NCBI GenBank assembly: GCA_937989885.1
Contig: CALKBP010000035.1
Location: 5,427-69,426 of the forward strand
Direction: 5' to 3'
Source: an uncultured Collinsella sp.
GTDB taxonomy: Bacteria; Actinomycetota; Coriobacteriia; Coriobacteriales; Coriobacteriaceae
Length of the DNA stretch: 64,000 nucleotides
Below the pieces are notes generated by a model, which did not search any database, was not told where the DNA came from, and was given only the letters and a program-made list of their open reading frames with translations. The position numbers were made by a program, and so were the translations under genes. Below, piece after piece: positions 15,955-61,946 of this stretch; positions within the stretch are counted from its first letter, which is position 1, and each line of letters opens with the position of its first letter.

Positions 15955-16045
15955 GTGGTGACGATTGACGGTAATCTGTGGTGACGATTGATTACGAACT
16001 ATGGTGACGATTGGCGGGTATCTGTGGTGACGGTTGTCATCGATT
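15955..16045. promoter_or_regulatory. Four direct repeats of tggtgacgattg at ~22-25-bp spacing, upstream of the AAA+/nuclease gene start (15908)
   Basis: gcgtggtgacgattgacgg / tgtggtgacgattgattac / tatggtgacgattggcggg / tgtggtgacggttgtcatcgattc, read directly. Confidence 0.5.
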
Positions 16046-16240
16046 CGGGGCATAGGGCAGCTTAGCTGTCTCAAAGCTTATAGATTTCGGGGCTTACACC
16101 GCGGACGTTTTGCCCCCATCGGTGTCGCCCATGTCGCCAATCGACAGACGGTGGTTTACATCTGTCACGTTAGTACTAAGATATTCATCTAATAAATTGC
16201 ATTAGTGGCTTTAGTTTTGGGGGAAACGAGCAACGTGACT

Positions 16241-16792
16241 ATGACATGCTCTTTGGTGGTCAACAGCAAGAGCGGTAATACCAGGATGGTTTCGGGCGCG
16301 ATCAAGCGTGCCCTACAGGCTGCGGGCGTTGAGTTTGTCCATGCCGCGGCGTTGAGCGACGATGCGGATGCAGATCAGGTTGCGCTCGAGGCGCAGGGCG
16401 CCTGCGCGGCCGACACGGTGCTCGTCGGTTTTTGGTGCGACAAGGGCGCGTGCACGCCTTCGGTTGCCGCGCTGCTCTCCGCTCTGCACGGCAAGCGCGT
16501 TTTCCTCTTTGGTACCTGCGGTTTTGGCGCCGACCAGAGCTATTATCAGCAGATTATCGATCGCGTGTCGTCCAATTTGGCAGAGGATGCCGAGCTTGCG
16601 GGCTGGGCGATGTGCCAGGGCAAGATGGGCCCCGCGGTCAAGCAGCGTTACGAGGCCATGCTCGAGCAAGATCCCGACAATGCCCGTTTTAAGATGCTGC
16701 TCGACAACTGGGTAGCCGCAAAGGATCACCCCACCAAGGAGGATCTGGACAACATGGCGATGGCGGCCAAGAAGGCCGTTCTGGGGGAGTAG
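16241..16792 (+). CDS. Flavodoxin-like fold family protein
   Basis: N-terminal MTCSLVVNSKSGNTRMVSGAIKRAL resembles the flavodoxin phosphate-binding loop (SxTGNT); size ~180 aa. Assignment from a weak motif only. Confidence 0.45.
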   Translation: MTCSLVVNSKSGNTRMVSGAIKRALQAAGVEFVHAAALSDDADADQVALEAQGACAADTVLVGFWCDKGACTPSVAALLSALHGKRVFLFGTCGFGADQSYYQQIIDRVSSNLAEDAELAGWAMCQGKMGPAVKQRYEAMLEQDPDNARFKMLLDNWVAAKDHPTKEDLDNMAMAAKKAVLGE

Positions 16793-16879
16793 GTCCATCT
16801 TCTAAATGCAATGCCCTCCCGGGTGGCGGCCCTTTATCGATGGAAGGCCTCATAAGCTGAAGTTCAATCCCCGGGATGC

Positions 16880-17125
16880 GTCCAGAGTGGGACGTGCTTT
16901 CCCGATGGGTGGGGTTTCGGAAAGTGGGGACTGGATTTTGAGCCTAGAGTGGGACATGCTTTCCCAAAGGCCGCTCAACGGGAAACCGCATCCCACTATT
17001 AGCCCGAGAAACGGGATGCACTTTCCCAAAGAGAGCCAACGGGAAACTACGTCCCACAATCAGCTTCCAAAGTGGGACACACTTTCCCGTTGAGGGTTGT
17101 TCCGGAAAGTGCATCCCGGAAATGG
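16880..17125. repeat. BIME-like array of ~15-bp palindromic units (GGGAYRYGCWTTCCC) in alternating orientation at a ~32-bp period, upstream of the giant surface-protein gene
   Basis: agtgggacgtgctttccc, agtgggacatgctttccc, gggaaaccgcatcccact, gggatgcactttccc, gggaaactacgtcccaca, agtgggacacactttccc, ggaaagtgcatcccgg. The related array downstream of the same gene is at 21447-21590. Confidence 0.65.
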
Positions 17126-17165
17126 GCTTTGAGCTTGGACGATGCTCCCCCAGTACCTCCGCTTT

Positions 17166-17245
17166 TAAAAATGAGACACGCCGTTGGCGAAAATGAGACA
17201 CGTGATATCGGGCATCGGATGTATCATTTGCAAAAATGAGTCCAC
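17166..17245. promoter_or_regulatory. Three direct repeats aaaatgagacacg / aaaatgagacacg / aaaatgagtccac in the promoter region of the surface-protein gene
   Basis: Read directly; ends ~25 bp before the ATG at 17272. Confidence 0.4.
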
Positions 17246-17271
17246 TCCACTCGAATAAAGCGAGGTCCCTC

Positions 17272-20200
17272 ATGTACGTTCCACACCCCCGTATCCGTAG
17301 GCTGTCGAAAATCCCGCTTGTTGGGACGGCGGCGCTTGCTGCGTTGATCGCCACGAGCGTCGCCTGCTTCACGGCCACGCCCCAGGTTGCCCAGGCGGCA
17401 GACGCGCCCGCAATCACCGATATGACCGAGCAGGATTATCAAGCCCTGGGTCTGGGCACGAGCGAGGACATTCCGGCCGATACCGTTGGCCCCTATTCCA
17501 CTGATACCCCCACGACGTTTGCCACGCGCAGCGAGGTCTATATGGCAGCTAACGGTAGCCATGGCAATCGCTACACTCTGCGCGACAAGCTCGAGAACGT
17601 CGAGCGCGGTGACATTGGCGGCAGCAGCAAACTCACCGATGGCTATGGAAGTGTGTGGGGCGCCGCAAAGTTCTGACAAAACGTCAACAACTTCGATACG
17701 AACAGCGATCTCTACAAGCATAGCGACTACGGTGGCGGCACCTGGTCGTACCTAAGCAACAATGAGTCCTCAACAGTACTCGCCAACGACAACAACGGTT
17801 TCTCGGGCATTCACGCCACGAGTGTTGAGTTCTGCAGCGACGCCAGCACGGGCAAAAAGAGCCGCGTTGCCGAGCTCCGTGCCTACGGCGACAGTTCCTC
17901 CACGACGATTGACGGCAAGTCATACGCCGGAAAGGTTGAGCTGGTCCTCTACTCGTTTAGCAACGGGCGTACGCGCACTCTCGACACACACCTGCCGGTG
18001 ACGGTCAACACTAATATGATGTACGAAGGCCGTTTTAAGTACCTGGATGCCGGTTACCTGCAAGAGCACGACGCCGTCTTTGATGTCGAGGCGGGCGATG
18101 TCGATGGCGACGGCGTCGACGAGCTTTTTGTCTACGCGGGCTGCTATGTCGACGAGAACGGCGTGCGCAAGGCTGTAGTCGACATGTATGACTTGGAGGG
18201 CGGCAACTGGAAGCAAAGCGTCGTCAAGATCGATGCCGGTAACGCCGCGGACTACACCACGCACAACAAGGGCGGGGACGACTCCTGGACGCAGCTTCAG
18301 TCAGCTCCTGTCGTTTCGCTAGCGGCCGGCGACCTCGATCGCGATTTTTGCGATGACCTCGCCATCGTGGTCTCGGCACCCTACGGCAAGAAGAATATTG
18401 ATAAGTCGACGCATTGCGAGCTGTTTTCGTGGGATGCATCCAAGGGTGCGCTCGTCCATGTCGATGCTCTGGGCGACACGGGCGCAATCTCCCTCTCCGC
18501 GAACGGCAAGACCATGGTCGCTGCGAATGCGACGTTCGGCACGTTTGCCGCCTACGATGAAGAAGGAAAAAAGACGGGTGAAACCGTCACGGGCCTTATT
18601 CTTGCGGGCTATGACTGGCAACGCAGCGCTTTTGATTACGGCGCTTCTGACGGCAGCAAGGGGCTGTACGGCGCGCTGTACCGCTACGCGTATTTTGACT
18701 CGGAGTCTGGCGAGTTCAAGCTTTCCGATTGCAAGGAATACAGAGACGGGCTCCTCGCCTCCTATGGGCTGATGCATGTGCCCAACAGCGCATGGAAGGA
18801 TAGCGCTCAGGATAAGCGCTATCCGTGCACCTTGGCGCCTATTGCCCTTGCCACTGCCAACCTTGACGGCCTGTCCGAGCAGCTGGCGGTCGACGAGGTG
18901 CTCGTGGGCGGCGATGTGTTCCGCGACTTTGCCTGCAACACGGCACAGAGCGGGGCTCAGGGCTTGGGGTCCATGGTCGGAACCATGAGCATGTGCGGTC
19001 AGCAATACAACAGCAGCAACAAGCATGACCACAAGGGTATAGAGCAGGTGTGGATCAGCGACGTCAAGGCGGGCAGCGTCTCGGGTTCGGACCGCTATAA
19101 CGAGAGCTTTATCGCCGTGGTGGGCAAGCACCGCGACGAGGACCTGCGCAAGAACGATGACTACTATTGGATGACCGCCTCGCATTTTTCGCTCGACGAG
19201 AACGGAAAGGTGCGCCGCGGCGAGGAGCAGGTGATTAGCGAGAGCAACCGTCGCGGCACTACCTACGGCACATTTATCTCGCTCGCGCTGCCCGATGTCG
19301 ACAACGACAGCGTCAAGATCACGTACAAGGACCGCTACAAGGTCTATACCAACCCGCGCGTGCTTGCCGTGCTGCAGGATGCGCCCTATGTTGAGGATCT
19401 GGAGCAGGCATACGGCTATCTGGTGTTGGGCGGCACGTCATACGGAGAGGAAAAGGGCACGGGGACATCCCAGGGCTATACCATTGGCGCCGAGTTGGGC
19501 GTTGCCGTCGAGGTGCAGACCGGTCCGCCCCTGGTCGCGATGAATGCTTCAGTCGATTTTGCCGCCGAGGGATGCTATGACTACCGGAGCGAGCGCACGG
19601 TCAGCGCAAGCGTAAGCTATGAGTCGCATGCCGGCGAGGGTGACAAGGCCGTGCTCTACACGATTCCGATGGTCTATTACGAGTATGAGATCGAAAATGA
19701 GGAAACTGGTGGCAAGGGCGTGATGGCGGCGCCCGTGTCGCTCGGCGCGCAGACCTCGGTCGTTAATGTCGAGGCCTATGACCGCATTGCCAAACAGCAC
19801 AATATGACGCCGCTCAGCTACTTTTTGACCAACCGGTCGGGAGAACCCGGAACCTATCAAACGACGCTCAACGGCGAGACTCCCGTTGGGGATTCCTTTG
19901 GCCTGGGCAAGCCTGGCGTAACGCGCGCCTACACGCACGATGGGTTTAACGGCGCCGCCGCGCAGTCGGGGGCGAGCATTGAGCAGACCATCGAAGTCGA
20001 GGAGGGCAAGGAGCAGGAGCTCGAGCTCGGCTTGACGCTGAACGGCAGCGTTGTCATGGGCGCGAAGCTCGCAAAGCACGAGTTGTTTGGCGGCCTGTGC
20101 TTTGGTGCCAACGCCGGCTTTACTACGGGTAACTCCTCGAGTGAATCGACCGAATACGGCGGCACCGTCGACAACCTGCCCGAGGCCGCGCAGGGCAAGT

Positions 20201-21360
20201 ACGGTTTTGTGTGGCGTCTGGGCGTCAACGCGGTGGATGTCGACAAGTTCGAGGCAGATTCGGGCGACAAGCTCGGCACCAAGGACACCGACCAGTTCTG
20301 GATCGTGGGCTATGACGTTAAGGACGTCGAGATGCCCGACGCGCCGGCCGTGACGGGCTTTACGGCAAACGCCGTCGATTCGACCAGCGTTACGTTTAGC
20401 TGGGACGATGTGCTCGCAAACAAGAGTGGCTTTAGCTACGGCGTGGGCATGCTGCAGAGCAATGCGGCGGATGCGGTCGTCAATAGCTGGAAGATTGCCG
20501 ACAACACGCAGACCTCGCTCAAGTGGGATGGGCTGCAGCCCAATACGGAGTATCGATTCGCCATCGCCGCCGTTAAGAATGGATCCACGACCGAAACAGG
20601 TATTCGCTCGGCAATCATCACGGTCAAGACCATGCCCGATGGCATGACGATGACCGTGAGCGGACCTGCGGCGGATGCTGCGGAGGGGTCGGATCTTGGA
20701 TACGACTCTTCGGTTGAGCGCACGGCGGGAAGCCACCTGACGCTCTCGGCGATTGGCCATGTGAAGCAACTCGGTGCCGACGATAGCGAAACAGGGCTGG
20801 CACCGACCTATATGTGGTACCGCAAGGGCCGCGGCGAGACAGAGTTTAAGCTCGTGGGTGCCGATGGCAACCTCGCGGCTGGAACGGCCTCAAAGCTCGA
20901 GATTGACCTGACCGCAGACGATGACGGTGCGCAGTATTACTGCCACGTGGGATACAACGAGGTGGGCCTCGACACCGGCACGACGCTCGTGAATATCGAG
21001 GCCGAGGAGACGGCGCTCACAACGGTGAACGCCACCCCGATCCGCACGCGCCGCCTGTTCTCACAGGCAAGTGCGGGCGCCAAGAAGTTCCTGGACCATA
21101 CGCTGGTAAACACCGCCGGCCCAACCGATTCCGAAGGCTCAAAGGACCCCGAGACTCCTGAGACCCCGACGAACCCGGACAAGCCCAAGTCCGACAACGG
21201 AGCTAAGACCGACACCAAGGTCAAGGCTACGACCACAGCGAAGAACCTCGCAAACACCGGCGACCAAACATTCGCCCTAGTCGCCACCGCAGCAGCAGCG
21301 GGAGCAACGCTCGTAGTGATAGCCCTCATCATGCTGATCAAGCGCCGCAAGACCCACTAG
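17272..21360 (+). pseudogene. Giant LAXTG-anchored cell-surface protein (FG-GAP-like repeats + fibronectin type III domain) interrupted by one in-frame TGA at 17674-17676
   Basis: The N-terminal piece (17272-17676) has a Sec-type signal peptide (MYVPHPRIRRLSKIPLVGTAALAALIATSVACFTATPQVAQA) but no anchor. The downstream piece (open in the same frame from 17677 to 21360) has no Met/signal peptide for >100 codons but ends with the sorting signal LANTG + hydrophobic segment + KRRKTH. FG-GAP-like motifs DVDGDGVDELFVYAG and AAGDLDRDFCDDLAIVV; FN3-like VTGFTANAVDSTSVTFSWDD...TEYRFAIAAV. So it is one gene split by a single stop codon. Confidence 0.65.
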
Positions 21361-21446
21361 TAGCCAGTCGAACATATCGACAACCCAAAAACCCGGGTAG
21401 CCAAAAACAGGCCACCCGGGTTTTCTGTTGAGTGGAGACTCCGCAA

Positions 21447-21590
21447 GCGGAAACTGCATCCCACAATTAGCGCCCGGAACGGGACACATTTTCCGTCAAG
21501 CCCTCATCCGGAAAATCCATCCCAGTTTGAGCGGAAACTGCATCCCATTCCAGACAAGAATTCCGGGACACGCTTTCCGGATACAAAGAA
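21447..21590. repeat. BIME-like alternating-orientation repeat array (same unit family as 16880-17125), downstream of the giant surface-protein gene
   Basis: cggaaactgcatcccaca, gggacacattttccg, ccggaaaatccatccca, cggaaactgcatccca, ccgggacacgctttccgg. Confidence 0.6.
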
Positions 21591-21700
21591 GGCCACATGA
21601 CGTGGCCTTCAACTTATATATGTTCAGCAGATTCCCCCATGACAAGCCGCGCTTCAATACCGAGGCGCCGGCCGGGCAGACGAACCGGGATACAGGCCCG

Positions 21701-24016
21701 CTACTTGATCTTGGTCGTACCCGGCGCCAGGTTGGGGTCGGTCTCGTTGGCCTCGGTCTGGAAGTGCTCGGTGTACACATTCTTGCCGTCACGGAACATC
21801 TCGTAGTACTGCATCTTGGCGTAATCCTCGCGCGCCTTGGTTGCGGCTGCGGCATCGGCGTCGTCACCGGTGACGTTGGAGGAAAGCGCCCAGCGCAGGC
21901 TGGCGTCCTCGTAGCCCACCGAGTTGATAGCGGGCAGCGACTCGCGCAGCGTCATGTGCGCCTTCTGGTAGTCGGTCAGCGGTGCGCCGATCAGCTGCAT
22001 AAGCTGCGTGGACAGGTAGTTGGTGGACAGGTCGTCGACCTCGCTCGTCTGGTTGCAGCCGGCAACGTCGTAGTTAGCCCAAATGATGTAGTCGGTCTGC
22101 CACAAGCGCTCCTGGTGGGTGGCGTCGTCCTCGCCGGTAAACCACTTATCGTTGAATTTGGACGGGAAGAACGGCTGATGGTCGCCCCAGAACACCACGA
22201 CCACCTTGCGGTCGAGTTTGCTCAGGGCGTTGAGGAAGTAACGCAGCGCCTGGTCGGACTGCTCGATGCACGAGACGTACTCGTCGACATCGGAGAGCGT
22301 GCCGTCCTCGATGGTCTTGGCGTCCAGATCGGTCGTGTCGATGTTCAGGTGCATCTGCTTGTCGACCGGCAGCAGGCCCGTATCGTAGCCCGAGTGGTTC
22401 TGCATGGTCACGTCGAAGATAAACTGCGGATCGGCGTTCTGGTTGAGCATCTCAAGAATCTTGTCGTAGGTAGCCTGGTCGGTCACCATGCCGCGCAGGG
22501 TATCGGCGCCCTGGAAATCGTTGATGGACAGGAACTGGTCAAAGCCAAAGTCCTTGTAGACGTTCTCGCGGTTCCAGTTGGTGGCGTGGTTGGGGTGCAT
22601 GGCCGTGGTGGAATATCCGAGCGACTTGAACTGCTCTGCCAGGTTCCCGGTCGTTTCCATGTTGTAGATGGTGTAGGGGTACACGCCCGAGCCCAGGTTG
22701 GCCATGGAGTTGCCGGTCATAAACTCAAACTCGGTATTGGCGGTGCCGCCGCCGTAGGCGCTCACGTAGAGCTTGCCGCGGCTGAGGCAGTTGGACAGGT
22801 TCTTAAAGTACTGCGGGCCTTCGTAGCCGGCGCGCATGTTCTGGTAGATCGAAAGATCCGAGAAGGTCTCGTTCATGATGGCGATGACCGTGGGCTTCTC
22901 GCTGTCGAACTGCTCCTTTGCGGCGGCGCGCTCGTCGCTCTCGGCCGCGTCGGACTTGTCGTAGGCCTTGGCGTACTTTTTGAGCGTGGCCTTGGCATCG
23001 TCGACGGAGTAGTCGGCGGGTTTGGGCGGCTTGATGGACTGCGCTGCGCTAATGAAAGCGGGCAGGTAGCCCTCGCGCCAGTAGCTCTCGAGCGGGCGCC
23101 AGGTGTAGACGGTGATGCCGAGGGTGTTGTAGTAGTCGATGAGCGTGACGTGTGCGGTCACACCGCCCAGGCACAGCACGGCGACGAGCAGGTTGGTGAG
23201 CAGCATGCGCTTGGCGTTGGCGGCGCCCTTCTGACGGTGCGGTGCCACCAGGCCGGCGTACTCGCACAGCAGCATGGCGATGGCGGTAAAGCCCATGGAC
23301 AGCACGCAGAACAGTGAGATCGAGAAGGTGTAGCCGGTGCCGGCGACCGCGGCGGCGGTGGAGATGGCCGAAAGGTCGCCCGGCTGGATGGGCATGGATT
23401 TAAATGTGATGACGAAGAACTCGGCAATGCCCAGGACAAAGAGGGCAAAGGCCAGGACCGCGGGAGCTGCGCCGTGGCGCTGGAACAGGAAGAACAGGCC
23501 GGTCATGAGCGTGGTGATGATGGCCCACTCGAGCAGGATGCACAGGGGGTAGACCCAGGTAAAGTCGTGGTTGGACGATACCTCCATGCCTAGCAGCGCA
23601 AAGACGCCGGCGAGCAGCAGGCACAGCACGGCGGCGACGAGTGGCTTGCCCACAAAGGCGCCGCGCAGGCGGGCGAGCTTGCCGGTGGGAGCGGGGGCGT
23701 CGGGCGCGGCGAACGCAAAGACGCGCGGGGCGATGCGGTCGCGTGCGATGCTGGCCCAAGCGCAGCCGGTGAGGATGGCGTTGGTCAGGATGAGCATCAC
23801 AAAGGCGAGCGGCTCGTTTTGGGCGACGAGGCCAATGGCGCCCCAAATGGTCAAAAAGAGCTGGAACAGGCCGAAGGCGACGCTCCACCCAAGAGCGCTT
23901 TTGGCAACGGTGCCCGACTGAGCGCGAATGGCCTTGGCCTCGCGCAAGACAAGGTAGACGGTCGCCGCAAGACCGACGAGCGAGATGGCGGCAGCGAACA
24001 TGCTGAGACTCCTCAC
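21701..24016 (-). CDS. LTA synthase / sulfatase-family membrane protein (LtaS-like phosphoglycerol transferase family)
   Basis: N-terminal ~5 TM helices followed by a large extracytoplasmic alkaline-phosphatase-superfamily domain (e.g. VVVFWGDHQP). Confidence 0.65.
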   Translation of the reverse strand: MRSLSMFAAAISLVGLAATVYLVLREAKAIRAQSGTVAKSALGWSVAFGLFQLFLTIWGAIGLVAQNEPLAFVMLILTNAILTGCAWASIARDRIAPRVFAFAAPDAPAPTGKLARLRGAFVGKPLVAAVLCLLLAGVFALLGMEVSSNHDFTWVYPLCILLEWAIITTLMTGLFFLFQRHGAAPAVLAFALFVLGIAEFFVITFKSMPIQPGDLSAISTAAAVAGTGYTFSISLFCVLSMGFTAIAMLLCEYAGLVAPHRQKGAANAKRMLLTNLLVAVLCLGGVTAHVTLIDYYNTLGITVYTWRPLESYWREGYLPAFISAAQSIKPPKPADYSVDDAKATLKKYAKAYDKSDAAESDERAAAKEQFDSEKPTVIAIMNETFSDLSIYQNMRAGYEGPQYFKNLSNCLSRGKLYVSAYGGGTANTEFEFMTGNSMANLGSGVYPYTIYNMETTGNLAEQFKSLGYSTTAMHPNHATNWNRENVYKDFGFDQFLSINDFQGADTLRGMVTDQATYDKILEMLNQNADPQFIFDVTMQNHSGYDTGLLPVDKQMHLNIDTTDLDAKTIEDGTLSDVDEYVSCIEQSDQALRYFLNALSKLDRKVVVVFWGDHQPFFPSKFNDKWFTGEDDATHQERLWQTDYIIWANYDVAGCNQTSEVDDLSTNYLSTQLMQLIGAPLTDYQKAHMTLRESLPAINSVGYEDASLRWALSSNVTGDDADAAAATKAREDYAKMQYYEMFRDGKNVYTEHFQTEANETDPNLAPGTTKIK

Positions 24017-61755: not shown

Positions 61756-61946
61756 TAGTCATTGGGGACGTTCTTAAATGACTAGTCAAAAGGGACATTC
61801 TTGCGGCACTTGGCACTTGGGGACGCTCCTTTTGTGCCGGCAGTTGGGGACTGTCCCTAAAGGCTGGCAGATGGGGACGGTTCTTTGTGGCTGGCTGCGA
61901 AGACTGTCCCTGACAGCTAGTCGTTTAAGAACGTCCCCAATGACTA
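61756..61946. repeat. ~190-bp element bounded by 23-bp perfect inverted repeats (tagtcattggggacgttcttaaa / tttaagaacgtccccaatgacta), internally rich in GGGGAC/GTCCC motifs and nested inverted repeats
   Basis: Read directly; the internal gactagtcaaaagggacattctt ... aagactgtccctgacagctagtc repeats resemble the family 2 REP core (caaagggacag). Confidence 0.6.

Follow-up and report, generated by a model that had tools for sequence, protein, structure and literature searches.

The 64,000-nucleotide stretch of an uncultured Collinsella sp. analysed here (the window) holds a large gene for a cell-wall-anchored surface protein, placed between a flavodoxin gene and a convergent gene for a sulfatase-family membrane protein, with an array of short repeated units on either side (Table 1). 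The surface protein carries a signal peptide and matches FG-GAP and fn3 weakly; at its C-terminus a LANTG motif precedes a hydrophobic segment and an RRK tail. It is 1362 aa long in other strains, and the window copy of its gene is broken by a TGG to TGA change at 17674–17676. The upstream array ends ~150 bp from the start codon of this adhesin, while the terminator hairpin of the gene is followed after 20 bp by the downstream array, which stops 10 bp before the hairpin of the sulfatase/LtaS-like gene and so lies between two convergent terminators. A search of both strands with GGGANNNNNTTTCC (GGGA-N5-TTTCC) gave 12 matches in the window, seven at 16889–17117, five at 21449–21578 and none elsewhere, whereas shuffles gave 0.36 on average and never more than 3. 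Matches to the richer pattern YGGGNYRYRSTTTCC, allowing up to one mismatch, are likewise confined to the two arrays, and this is the only array-bearing locus in the window. With all 12 matches inside them, the two flanking arrays described in the sequence-only reading are real, and their coordinates and unit counts were essentially right.

Table 1. Features of the surface-protein locus (positions in the window).
Feature	Position	Strand	Remarks
Flavodoxin (BilS-type) gene	16205..16792	+	Conserved left flank of variable locus
Upstream array, 8 units	16889..17117	none	7 exact units and 1 in-phase degenerate unit
Upstream array cores, first half	16889-16902 (+), 16919-16932 (-, degenerate), 16951-16964 (+), 16981-16994 (-)		
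Upstream array cores, second half	17013-17026 (+), 17042-17055 (-), 17074-17087 (+), 17104-17117 (-)		
Cell-wall-anchored surface protein gene	17272..21360	+	Between the arrays; outside the repeat family
Terminator-type hairpin of surface-protein gene	21388..21429	+	AAAACCCGGGTAGCC...GGCCACCCGGGTTTTCTGTT; inverted repeat; kept in all alleles
Downstream array, 5 units	21449..21578	none	Order - + - - +
Downstream array cores	21449-21462 (-), 21481-21494 (+), 21510-21523 (-), 21533-21546 (-), 21565-21578 (+)		
Terminator-like hairpin of convergent sulfatase/LtaS-like gene	21588..21610	-	
Sulfatase-family (LtaS-like) membrane protein gene	21701..24016	-	Conserved right flank of variable locus

The units had been said to alternate strictly in orientation at a period of ~32 bp. 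Upstream the alternation is indeed strict across eight units, counting the degenerate one with its three core mismatches, but downstream it breaks once, at two minus-strand units 23 bp apart (21510 and 21533). When the array is set beside the 12-unit alleles found in other genomes, this 23-bp step proves to be the scar of an out-of-register internal deletion of ~7 units. As for the period, it survives analysis by Tandem Repeats Finder, which independently called a period of 61 at 16948–17088, but it is not a uniform 32 bp: successive upstream units lie 30/32/30/32/29/32/30 bp apart, with 29–30 bp from plus to minus (tail-to-tail) and 32 bp from minus to plus (head-to-head), and the true repeat is a double unit of 61–62 bp. 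A repeat search of the window also recovers the inverted unit pairs.

A paired-unit scan of species-representative genomes listed at least 120 stretches, and the array family is found almost only in Collinsella among the matches listed. These hold at least 759 units, in arrays of 2–17, with the same spacing as in the window: minus-to-plus neighbours are 32 bp apart in at least 254 cases, plus-to-minus neighbours 30 bp apart in at least 197 and 29 bp in at least 45, and same-strand neighbours 61–62 bp apart have a degenerate unit in between. The unit is ~20 bp long and its core is bipartite, roughly A.W.Y-GGG(A)-YRYRS-TTTCC-S, and the 14-bp cores are joined by linkers of 16 nt tail-to-tail and 18 nt head-to-head. 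Two flank subtypes, ATTCY and ARARY, alternate, such that a head-to-head pair never has ATTCY on both units; the commonest 5' flank is ATTCC or ATTCT. Pairing within a unit is limited to GGGA...TCCC and is possible only with C at position 15 (27% of units). A single unit is not an imperfect palindrome of the 20–40 nt stem-loop type, and hairpin potential arises between inverted neighbours.

Strong constraint acts on both core and phasing; linkers, by contrast, differ from locus to locus. Core conservation among the scan matches is partly by construction, since core positions are set by the search pattern, and in-phase degenerate units and orthologous arrays provide less biased tests. Of the 69 distinct in-phase degenerate units among the matches listed, 59 depart from the core at one position only, in most cases the A of GGGA. 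In orthologous downstream arrays from seven genomes, which are closely related and give non-independent pairwise counts, core sites showed 0 differences in 1610 comparisons compared with 118 in 3595 (3.3%) at other array sites. Within arrays linkers are near saturation (identity ~0.3–0.5) and cores are exact; among the matches listed, 139 of 254 tail-to-tail and 148 of 265 head-to-head linkers are distinct. Base pairing leaves no comparable trace: we observed no compensatory changes between neighbouring inverted units, and at variable positions these form Watson-Crick pairs as often as shuffled partners do, whichever register is used (z −1.9 to +1.5). What is conserved in the units is their sequence, and not base-paired stems. 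The arrays had also been expected to fold into a series of stem-loops; as single strands they do fold better than shuffles, upstream far better (z = −6.1) and downstream modestly (z = −2.5), but nested long-range pairings are predicted in place of a tidy row of stem-loops. Given the z of −6.1 for the upstream array, cruciform or hairpin DNA, or antisense or read-through RNA, may also have a role.

After de-duplication, arrays occur in at least 67 distinct gene-pair contexts across Collinsella, and the neighbouring proteins fall into at least 96 clusters which, by Pfam, come from ordinary, unrelated genes, including GH5, GH1, FeoB, patatin, DUF956 and Abi_2. The family is dispersed in BIME-like manner over many unrelated intergenic sites and is not adhesin-specific, dispersal being demonstrated genus-wide, across genomes; several genomes contribute two or three separate array loci among the matches listed. 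Both window arrays, and those in at least 120 other stretches, lie between genes or ORFs. Exact single units outside arrays are rare, with four in the examined loci, near a rough chance estimate derived from the shuffle rate of the window (0.36 per 64 kb).

Arrays tend to sit at the 3' ends of genes and between convergent genes, past the terminators, with no strand tie to transcription. Convergent contexts make up 36% with an array versus 22% without (odds ratio 2.0, p = 0.025, a modest excess after de-duplication), and divergent contexts 13% versus 24%. By gene and terminator calls that are both crude, a terminator-like hairpin precedes the array at 48 of 73 gene ends, compared with 213 of 435 controls, and in co-directional contexts array polarity shows no relation to gene direction (8:9 and 8:7). 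It is quite improbable that the arrays are RNA-level elements, that is, transcribed stem-loops which stabilise mRNA 3' ends, bring about termination or serve as a small RNA or protein sponge. The folding of the upstream array and the preference for gene 3' ends would suit such a role, for which there is precedent in E. coli, where most REPs are transcribed and some yield functional RNAs (PMC4550694). Against it, covariation is absent in either hairpin register, exact bases are kept where mere pairing would tolerate change, polarity ignores the flanking genes, about two-thirds of arrays lie beyond a terminator-like hairpin, folding of the downstream array is marginal, and a search of Rfam 15 over the array returned nothing at gathering score, with only chance-level hits (E ~1 or more) in a permissive search; the Rfam matches in the window, SRP RNA and one tRNA, are both away from the arrays. 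The suggestion of mRNA stabilisation by stem-loops finds no support, given the want of compensatory change, the indifference to gene direction and the position of the downstream array between convergent terminators.

Nor is there support for a special link to the adhesin gene, as had been proposed from the occurrence of the same units on both its flanks. Besides the many other gene-pair contexts, strain L004 has no adhesin gene and retains an array at the site, while the common L001-type adhesin allele is an intact gene without a downstream array, and an enrichment of sortase-anchored neighbours derives entirely from this one orthologous locus. Upstream arrays here number 8–14 sites depending on the strain, about three helical turns apart, and some of the largest arrays sampled are at this locus (12–14 units; the largest listed, 17 units, is at another locus, L106). 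The arrangement may be likened to that of the pap operon, in which six Lrp sites lie about three helical turns apart and are cooperatively bound. Like Lrp/AsnC arrays, those of Collinsella have ~15-bp sites every 30–32 bp on one helix face, compatible with wrapping of the DNA on a protein multimer, and one of them is upstream of an adhesin gene; Lrp arrays are, however, promoter-specific, AT-rich and few per genome, whereas the Collinsella arrays are GC-rich, dispersed, mostly at gene 3' ends, and contain up to 17 units among those listed. A gene-specific regulatory or phase-variation device, with a regulator on the phased upstream sites and unit number tuning or switching the adhesin, would fit the arrangement at this locus but is very improbable given arrays beside many unrelated genes and the behaviour of the L004 and L001-type alleles.

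Arrays grow and shrink by whole units. In the downstream array, alleles carry 0, 4, 5, 8, 10 or 12 units, those bearing an array differing mostly by in-register deletions, and the L001 upstream array has one extra 62-bp double unit at its adhesin-proximal end compared with the window. The interval between flavodoxin and sulfatase genes is itself variable, containing, according to strain, the adhesin, a small LAATG protein, a camelysin/signal-peptidase cassette or nothing. Genomes whose flanks differ by 4–7% share an adhesin block of 99.5% identity that stops at the downstream array; at this locus, a horizontally exchanged surface-protein allele has arrays at its edge. To this extent the earlier idea of a recombination target or island boundary holds in part, through the whole-unit deletion alleles and the end point of the adhesin block. 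Upstream and downstream arrays are also more alike (169–200 bits) than either is to arrays elsewhere (~85–150 bits), the L004 array resembles a fusion of an upstream part with a downstream part, and a 332-aa gene at another locus has arrays on both sides, as the adhesin does. All of this could be accommodated by dedicated recombination sites at which a site-specific recombinase swaps surface-gene cassettes, loosely like integron attC. We regard such sites as distinctly improbable: most arrays flank housekeeping-type genes, no recombinase gene adjoins the arrays, and the junctions seen are deletions of in-register units or between CGGCG microhomologies, of the kind that general recombination or slippage usually leaves, and not a fixed crossover.

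We found neither a publication describing the array family nor an Rfam family for it. It is not a CRISPR array, as units alternate and have 14-bp cores with 16/18-nt linkers instead of 23–50-bp direct repeats with unique spacers of similar length, and the array flanks showed no cas genes. It is not a MITE either, having a variable unit number, no fixed ends and allelic differences that are whole-unit deletions. BOX and RUP of Streptococcus and MIRU of Mycobacterium similarly lie between genes, are lineage-specific and vary in copy number, but they consist of direct tandem or modular repeats, or resemble MITEs with terminal inverted repeats; none is known to have 14-bp cores in strict alternation with 30/32-bp phasing. 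The likeness to BIMEs (bacterial interspersed mosaic elements, clusters of REP or palindromic units) was already named in the sequence-only reading, and here its judgement was sound. For the BIMEs of E. coli and other Proteobacteria, especially BIME-2, as for the Collinsella arrays, both are extragenic with regular alternating orientation, two alternating linker classes, two unit subtypes, strain-variable unit number, many loci and a preference for gene 3' ends. The Collinsella units nevertheless have no sequence similarity to BIMEs, are shorter (~20 bp) and form a poor stem-loop alone, and the arrays differ in their conserved bipartite sequence core, lack of compensatory change, lack of a GT(A/G)G head, lack of a detected RAYT, and host, a Gram-positive actinobacterium (Coriobacteriia).

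Their build also invites comparison with the REPIN/REP-RAYT elements of Pseudomonas, Stenotrophomonas and E. coli (yafM), which are likewise clustered, lineage-specific inverted pairs of short extragenic sequences with hairpin potential. It is conceivable, though unlikely, that the arrays are selfish REPIN- or MITE-like elements without host function, in which units or inverted pairs were dispersed by a transposase, RAYT-like or of another kind, whose gene lies elsewhere and whose recognition site is the core. In favour of this are the BIME-like, extragenic organisation and near-restriction to one genus, as in REP families (PMC2817692, PMC3333891), the inverted pairs and the varying array copy number. 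REPINs, however, are near-identical copies with palindromes kept by compensatory mutation, as described for REPs (PMC2817692), whereas here linkers are locus-specific, palindromy comes without covariation, and arrays from different contexts are 70–78% similar, far from a set of many near-identical copies. Sharing of the top-shared linkers that we inspected is among orthologous loci, arguing against fresh copies at new sites, and units within an array are old, as judged by their saturated linkers, yet have exact cores. Furthermore, the 5' flank ends in GT before GGGA (giving GTGG) in only ~19% of units, Pfam scans revealed no transposase among array neighbours, and tblastn with an approximate IS200 TnpA query, a weak test, gave no Y1-transposase-like match below E = 2 in a small sample of ~0.9 Mb of array loci.

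Taken as a whole, the evidence points to a DNA-level array of protein sites on one helix face, and neither to RNA stem-loops nor to a mobile element that is still active, which favours the DNA-binding-protein array among the options of the sequence-only reading, the binding itself being inferred. We consider it likely, with a probability of roughly 0.6, that the window arrays are local members of a BIME-like extragenic array family serving as docking sites for a DNA-binding protein. Each unit would be the recognition site of a candidate sequence-specific DNA-binding protein. Half-sites at ~0, 9.5, 30.5, 40 and 62 bp would lie on one helix face, so that proteins on an array would build up a cooperative nucleoprotein complex, possibly with the DNA wrapped around it. 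This complex could act on DNA, for instance on topology, nucleoid organisation or insulation at transcription-unit ends, and the same DNA-level role has been proposed for gyrase- and IHF-binding BIMEs. BIMEs are known to be bound by IHF, DNA gyrase and Pol I (PMC2817692). Copy-number changes and the breakpoint beside the adhesin gene would be by-products of repetitive structure and not its purpose. More tentatively, and with rather less confidence than in the docking sites themselves, we suggest that Collinsella independently evolved a BIME-like feature in which a putative protein reads GGG(A)-N5-TTTCC every three helical turns, the wrapped complexes acting as topological or insulating punctuation at transcription-unit ends, with breakpoints of inter-species surface-allele exchange as a side effect. 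If true, BIME-type architecture would be a convergent solution, independent of RAYT transposases and of stem-loop formation.

Collinsella is an abundant and very diverse genus of the human gut, the non-coding parts of whose genomes have hardly been studied. An invariant core with exact phasing at dozens of sites offers a handle on a DNA-binding protein in Coriobacteriia, whether a new one or a known one put to new use (such as gyrase or a nucleoid protein), and the arrays would test whether the architecture of proteobacterial BIMEs exists without REP stem-loops and RAYT transposases. They also mark a hot spot at which Collinsella lineages swap cell-surface genes, a matter of relevance to host interaction. 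In practical terms, the arrays are a strain-level length polymorphism useful for typing and a likely cause of assembly breaks. ORFs called over them are artefacts, as the sequence-only reading had held, because the 61–62-bp period is not a multiple of three and no frame is kept; those overlapping arrays are either short or upstream over-extensions of real genes, for example GH5, and annotators should mask them.

The core GGGA-N5-TTTCC is found 12 times in the 64-kb window when both strands are searched, all 12 matches lying in two arrays either side of the adhesin gene and none elsewhere, while shuffled sequences contain a mean of 0.36 and a maximum of 3. Matches to the stricter pattern YGGGNYRYRSTTTCC, with one mismatch tolerated, are confined to the same two arrays, and the proposal that alternating units flank the gene on both sides is thus borne out. 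The upstream array comprises 8 units if a degenerate in-phase unit at 16919-16932 is counted, whereupon alternation is strict, and the downstream array has the order - + - - +, with an anomalous 23-bp step from 21510 to 21533. Steps of 29-30 bp from plus to minus units (tail-to-tail) and of 32 bp from minus to plus units (head-to-head) follow in turn, and the true repeat is therefore a double unit of 61-62 bp; indeed, Tandem Repeats Finder independently found a period of 61, and inverted pairs of units were recovered by repeat search of the window. The spacing, read from sequence alone as ~32 bp, is therefore regular but not uniform. A super-period of four units (GGGAC-type and GGGAT-type), hinted at by the window's upstream array, fails across other loci.

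Features flanking and including the two arrays (window coordinates)
Feature	Position	Remark
BilS-type flavodoxin gene	16205-16792	left flank
Upstream array	16889-17117	7 exact core matches
Adhesin terminator hairpin	21388-21429	
Downstream array	21449-21578	5 exact core matches, between the two hairpins
Terminator-like hairpin of convergent sulfatase/LtaS-like gene	21588-21610	
Sulfatase/LtaS-like gene		right flank, convergent to adhesin

Flanked by the two arrays is a gene for a sortase-type surface protein, which has a signal peptide, weak matches to FG-GAP and fn3, and a C terminus in which an LANTG motif precedes a hydrophobic stretch and then RRK. In other strains the protein has 1362 aa, from a start equivalent to window position 17272. 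The window copy has an in-frame TGA at 17674-17676 where L001 and L039 (orthologous loci from other genomes) have TGG (Trp), the remaining frame being intact, and would be either a nonsense pseudogene or the product of a sequencing error in the assembly. The flavodoxin exceeds the NCBIfam cut-off for BilS, the bilirubin reductase-associated flavodoxin. Unrelated to the array motif is AAAATGAG(A/T)C, which is repeated directly at 17168, 17190 and 17233 (span 17168-17245), in the interval from the upstream array to the adhesin start codon; two of the three copies are the exact 13-mer AAAATGAGACACG, and the copies may be adhesin operator or promoter elements. Resembling iterons or operators, four direct copies of GTGGTGACGATTG with a 23-bp period (15955-16036) occupy the divergent region that separates the flavodoxin gene from an AAA_14/DUF4143 ATPase gene.

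Exact-protein look-up of this ATPase identified eight related contigs; the same look-up with the flavodoxin ORF as delimited gave no match, probably because its start codon is called differently. A scan of one genome per species for the pattern GGGA-N5-TTTCC-N14-18-GGAAA-N5-TCCC returned at least 120 stretches, nearly all from Collinsella or Coriobacteriaceae assemblies, and the few matches outside Coriobacteriaceae look like chance matches or mis-binned contigs. In the listed loci at least 759 units share the window's phasing, with head-to-head steps of 32 bp in 254 cases and tail-to-tail steps of 30 bp in 197 and 29 bp in 45; same-strand neighbours 61-62 bp apart have a single degenerate unit in between. 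Arrays hold 2-17 units among the matches listed, and the wider unit consensus in the listed loci is approximately A.W.Y-GGG(A)-Y-G-C-R-S-TTTCC-S. Exact lone units outside arrays are rare, and the four in the comparison loci are close to the number roughly expected by chance if the window's shuffle rate is extrapolated. A phage association was rejected, as the upstream array region had no match in a phage database and the paired-unit pattern occurs in only 4 stretches among 2.9 million viral contigs.

An adhesin-specific regulator or phase switch, as two arrays bracketing one gene might suggest, is the least likely of the alternatives we weighed. Family arrays occupy at least 67 distinct gene-pair contexts once orthologous loci are collapsed, and among the matches listed their flanking proteins form 96 clusters, including GH5 and GH1 glycosidases, FeoB, a patatin-like lipase, DUF956, an Abi_2 protein, molybdopterin dehydrogenase and sugar-phosphate isomerase-like proteins. 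L004, an orthologous locus lacking the adhesin gene, retains an array of at least 5 units between the flavodoxin and sulfatase genes, and in the L001-type allele an intact adhesin gene is accompanied by the upstream array but by no downstream array; the special tie to the adhesin put forward earlier is not supported. A seemingly significant association with LPXTG/LAXTG surface proteins as a general rule (15/176 versus 5/410) was rejected because every adjacent case is this single orthologous locus, represented by many species. A link to the neighbouring AAA_14/DUF4143 ATPase was also rejected, homologues being present in only a handful of array loci, and the ~480-aa ORFs overlapping array ends, considered as a candidate transposase, are GH5 genes with over-extended starts. 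A second case of an array-bracketed gene is a 332-aa gene without a Pfam match, which has family arrays on both sides in two comparison loci (L064, 1621-3411; L084, 6123-7983).

Genes and terminators in the comparison loci were called with simple in-house scripts. After de-duplication, 36% of array-bearing contexts are convergent pairs versus 22% of those without an array (odds ratio 2.0, p = 0.025), and 13% versus 24% are divergent pairs. With a crude detector, a terminator-like hairpin precedes the array at 48/73 array-followed gene ends versus 213/435 other ends. Array polarity bears no relation to gene direction in co-directional contexts (8:9 and 8:7).

A series of stem-loops had been suggested, and folding potential is present: as a single strand the upstream array folds much better than its shuffles (z = -6.1) and the downstream array slightly better (z = -2.5). 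The predicted folds of both are nested long-range pairings, however, and not the row of local hairpins envisaged. Hairpins under selection would show covariation between inverted neighbours at variable central positions and flanks. None was found at the 5 variable central positions or the flanks, Watson-Crick pairing at the central positions equalling that of shuffled partners in both head-to-head and tail-to-tail registers (z -1.9 to +1.5), so what is conserved is the sequence of each unit separately. An RNA element is improbable: the position and polarity data, together with the missing covariation, speak against an RNA role tied to one strand and in favour of action on duplex DNA. Rfam gave no family match to the arrays over the window at the gathering threshold, and only chance-level miRNA-like hairpins over the upstream array in a permissive search.

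Core positions are fixed by the search pattern, so that degenerate in-phase units and orthologous alignments provide less biased tests of conservation. Of 69 distinct degenerate in-phase units, 59 depart from the core at one position only, in most cases the A of GGGA. Across orthologous downstream arrays of 7 genomes, core sites show 0/1610 pairwise differences and non-core array sites 118/3595 (3.3%), counts that are non-independent among such close relatives. Within an array the cores are exact, but the linkers are nearly random when compared with each other (identity 0.3-0.5). By coordinate arithmetic, half-sites within a unit are 9.5 bp apart and successive half-sites fall at ~0, 9.5, 30.5, 40 and 62 bp, approximately multiples of the helical turn, so the half-sites lie on one face of the duplex. 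Head-to-head pairs, among the matches listed, always join two differing flank types, ATTCY with ARARY in 170/214 and ATTCY with ATTCY never, recalling the Y and Z units of BIMEs.

The reading best supported by these patterns is a BIME-like family of phased sites that bind protein and act at the level of DNA. Each unit would be bound by a putative protein, which at the ends of transcription units could influence topology, nucleoid structure or insulation, with recombination and copy-number change as consequences of the repetitive layout. Proteobacterial BIMEs, as outlined in PMC2817692 and PMC3333891, are regularly spaced, extragenic REPs of alternating orientation that bind protein. The Collinsella arrays are alike in spacing, alternation and extragenic site; in layout the family behaves like a BIME, and its arrays probably bind protein too. 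Unlike a REP, the Collinsella unit forms no stem-loop itself and its palindromy is without compensatory upkeep. A selfish REPIN-like element, which the inverted pairs resemble, is unlikely, though less so than the other alternatives: linkers are locus-specific, inverted units show no compensatory change, a GT(A/G)G head is not characteristic (~19% of units carry one) and no transposase or RAYT was seen in the comparison loci, a weak test. The top-shared linkers that we inspected are shared among orthologous loci, giving no sign of recent copy spread. On present evidence the family stands outside the REP/RAYT lineage. To our knowledge, CsrA-type GGA sponge RNAs, Type I restriction-site arrays and Chi-like, parS, dif and Ter sites do not fit the genus-wide conservation, alternation and location past terminators, and were set aside. 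The literature searched on Collinsella REP, inverted or intergenic repeats and on RAYT/REPIN in Actinobacteria yielded no description of the family. A direct tandem repeat at window 61811-61895 (27-bp period, 3.2 copies, motif GGGGAC..(G)TCC) is superficially like half of the array core, but its orientation is direct.

The arrays vary between strains. Downstream alleles have 0, 4, 5, 8, 10 or 12 units, and alignment indicates that most of the shorter array-bearing alleles derive from the 12-unit form by in-register deletion of whole units; the window allele is an out-of-register deletion of ~7 units, which explains its 23-bp step. In the upstream array, L001 has one 62-bp double unit more than the window. 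In L005, another orthologous locus, most of the adhesin gene is deleted, with one deletion end inside the array and CGGCG microhomology at the junction. The adhesin gene and first downstream units (window 17324-21533) are 99.4-99.5% identical to those of three orthologous loci, L024, L105 and L044, whereas the sulfatase flank is only 93-96% identical and the sequence immediately past the downstream array diverges by 14%, from which it follows that Collinsella lineages recently exchanged the adhesin allele horizontally. As placed by these alignments, the right-hand breakpoint of the exchanged allele is at the downstream array. The suggestion that the arrays are a recombination target or mark an island boundary is partly supported by the whole-unit deletions and this breakpoint; arrays serving as dedicated sites for cassette recombination are very unlikely, only marginally less so than the adhesin-specific switch. 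The upstream and downstream arrays are somewhat more alike (169-200 bits) than either is to arrays elsewhere (~85-150 bits). The L004 array corresponds to the first part of the upstream array and, weakly, to that of the downstream array, which may reflect either gene loss through recombination between flanking arrays or insertion into a single older array.

At least three further adhesin alleles are present, L001-type (5.7% divergent, in the 3' 1.5 kb), L003-type (3.7%) and L062-type (9%). The flavodoxin-sulfatase interval (window 16793-21700; L001-L008, L054, L081, L124) is a swap site for cell-surface genes, holding the 1362-aa LANTG adhesin, a 232-309-aa LAATG-anchored protein, a truncated adhesin remnant or nothing; in L008 the cassette encodes a 1820-aa protein, a camelysin-like protein and an S26 signal peptidase. 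In many strains the terminator-like hairpin 3' of the sulfatase gene is enclosed by an inverted repeat of ~120 nt with arms of ~25 bp (CCCGGGCGGCGCGGAATGTAAGGTTC...; L001 at ~2200-2330, also L039, L024 and L105). This repeat, which may be a separate small palindromic element, is cleanly missing from the window at the equivalent point (21665-21680), as if excised or never inserted.
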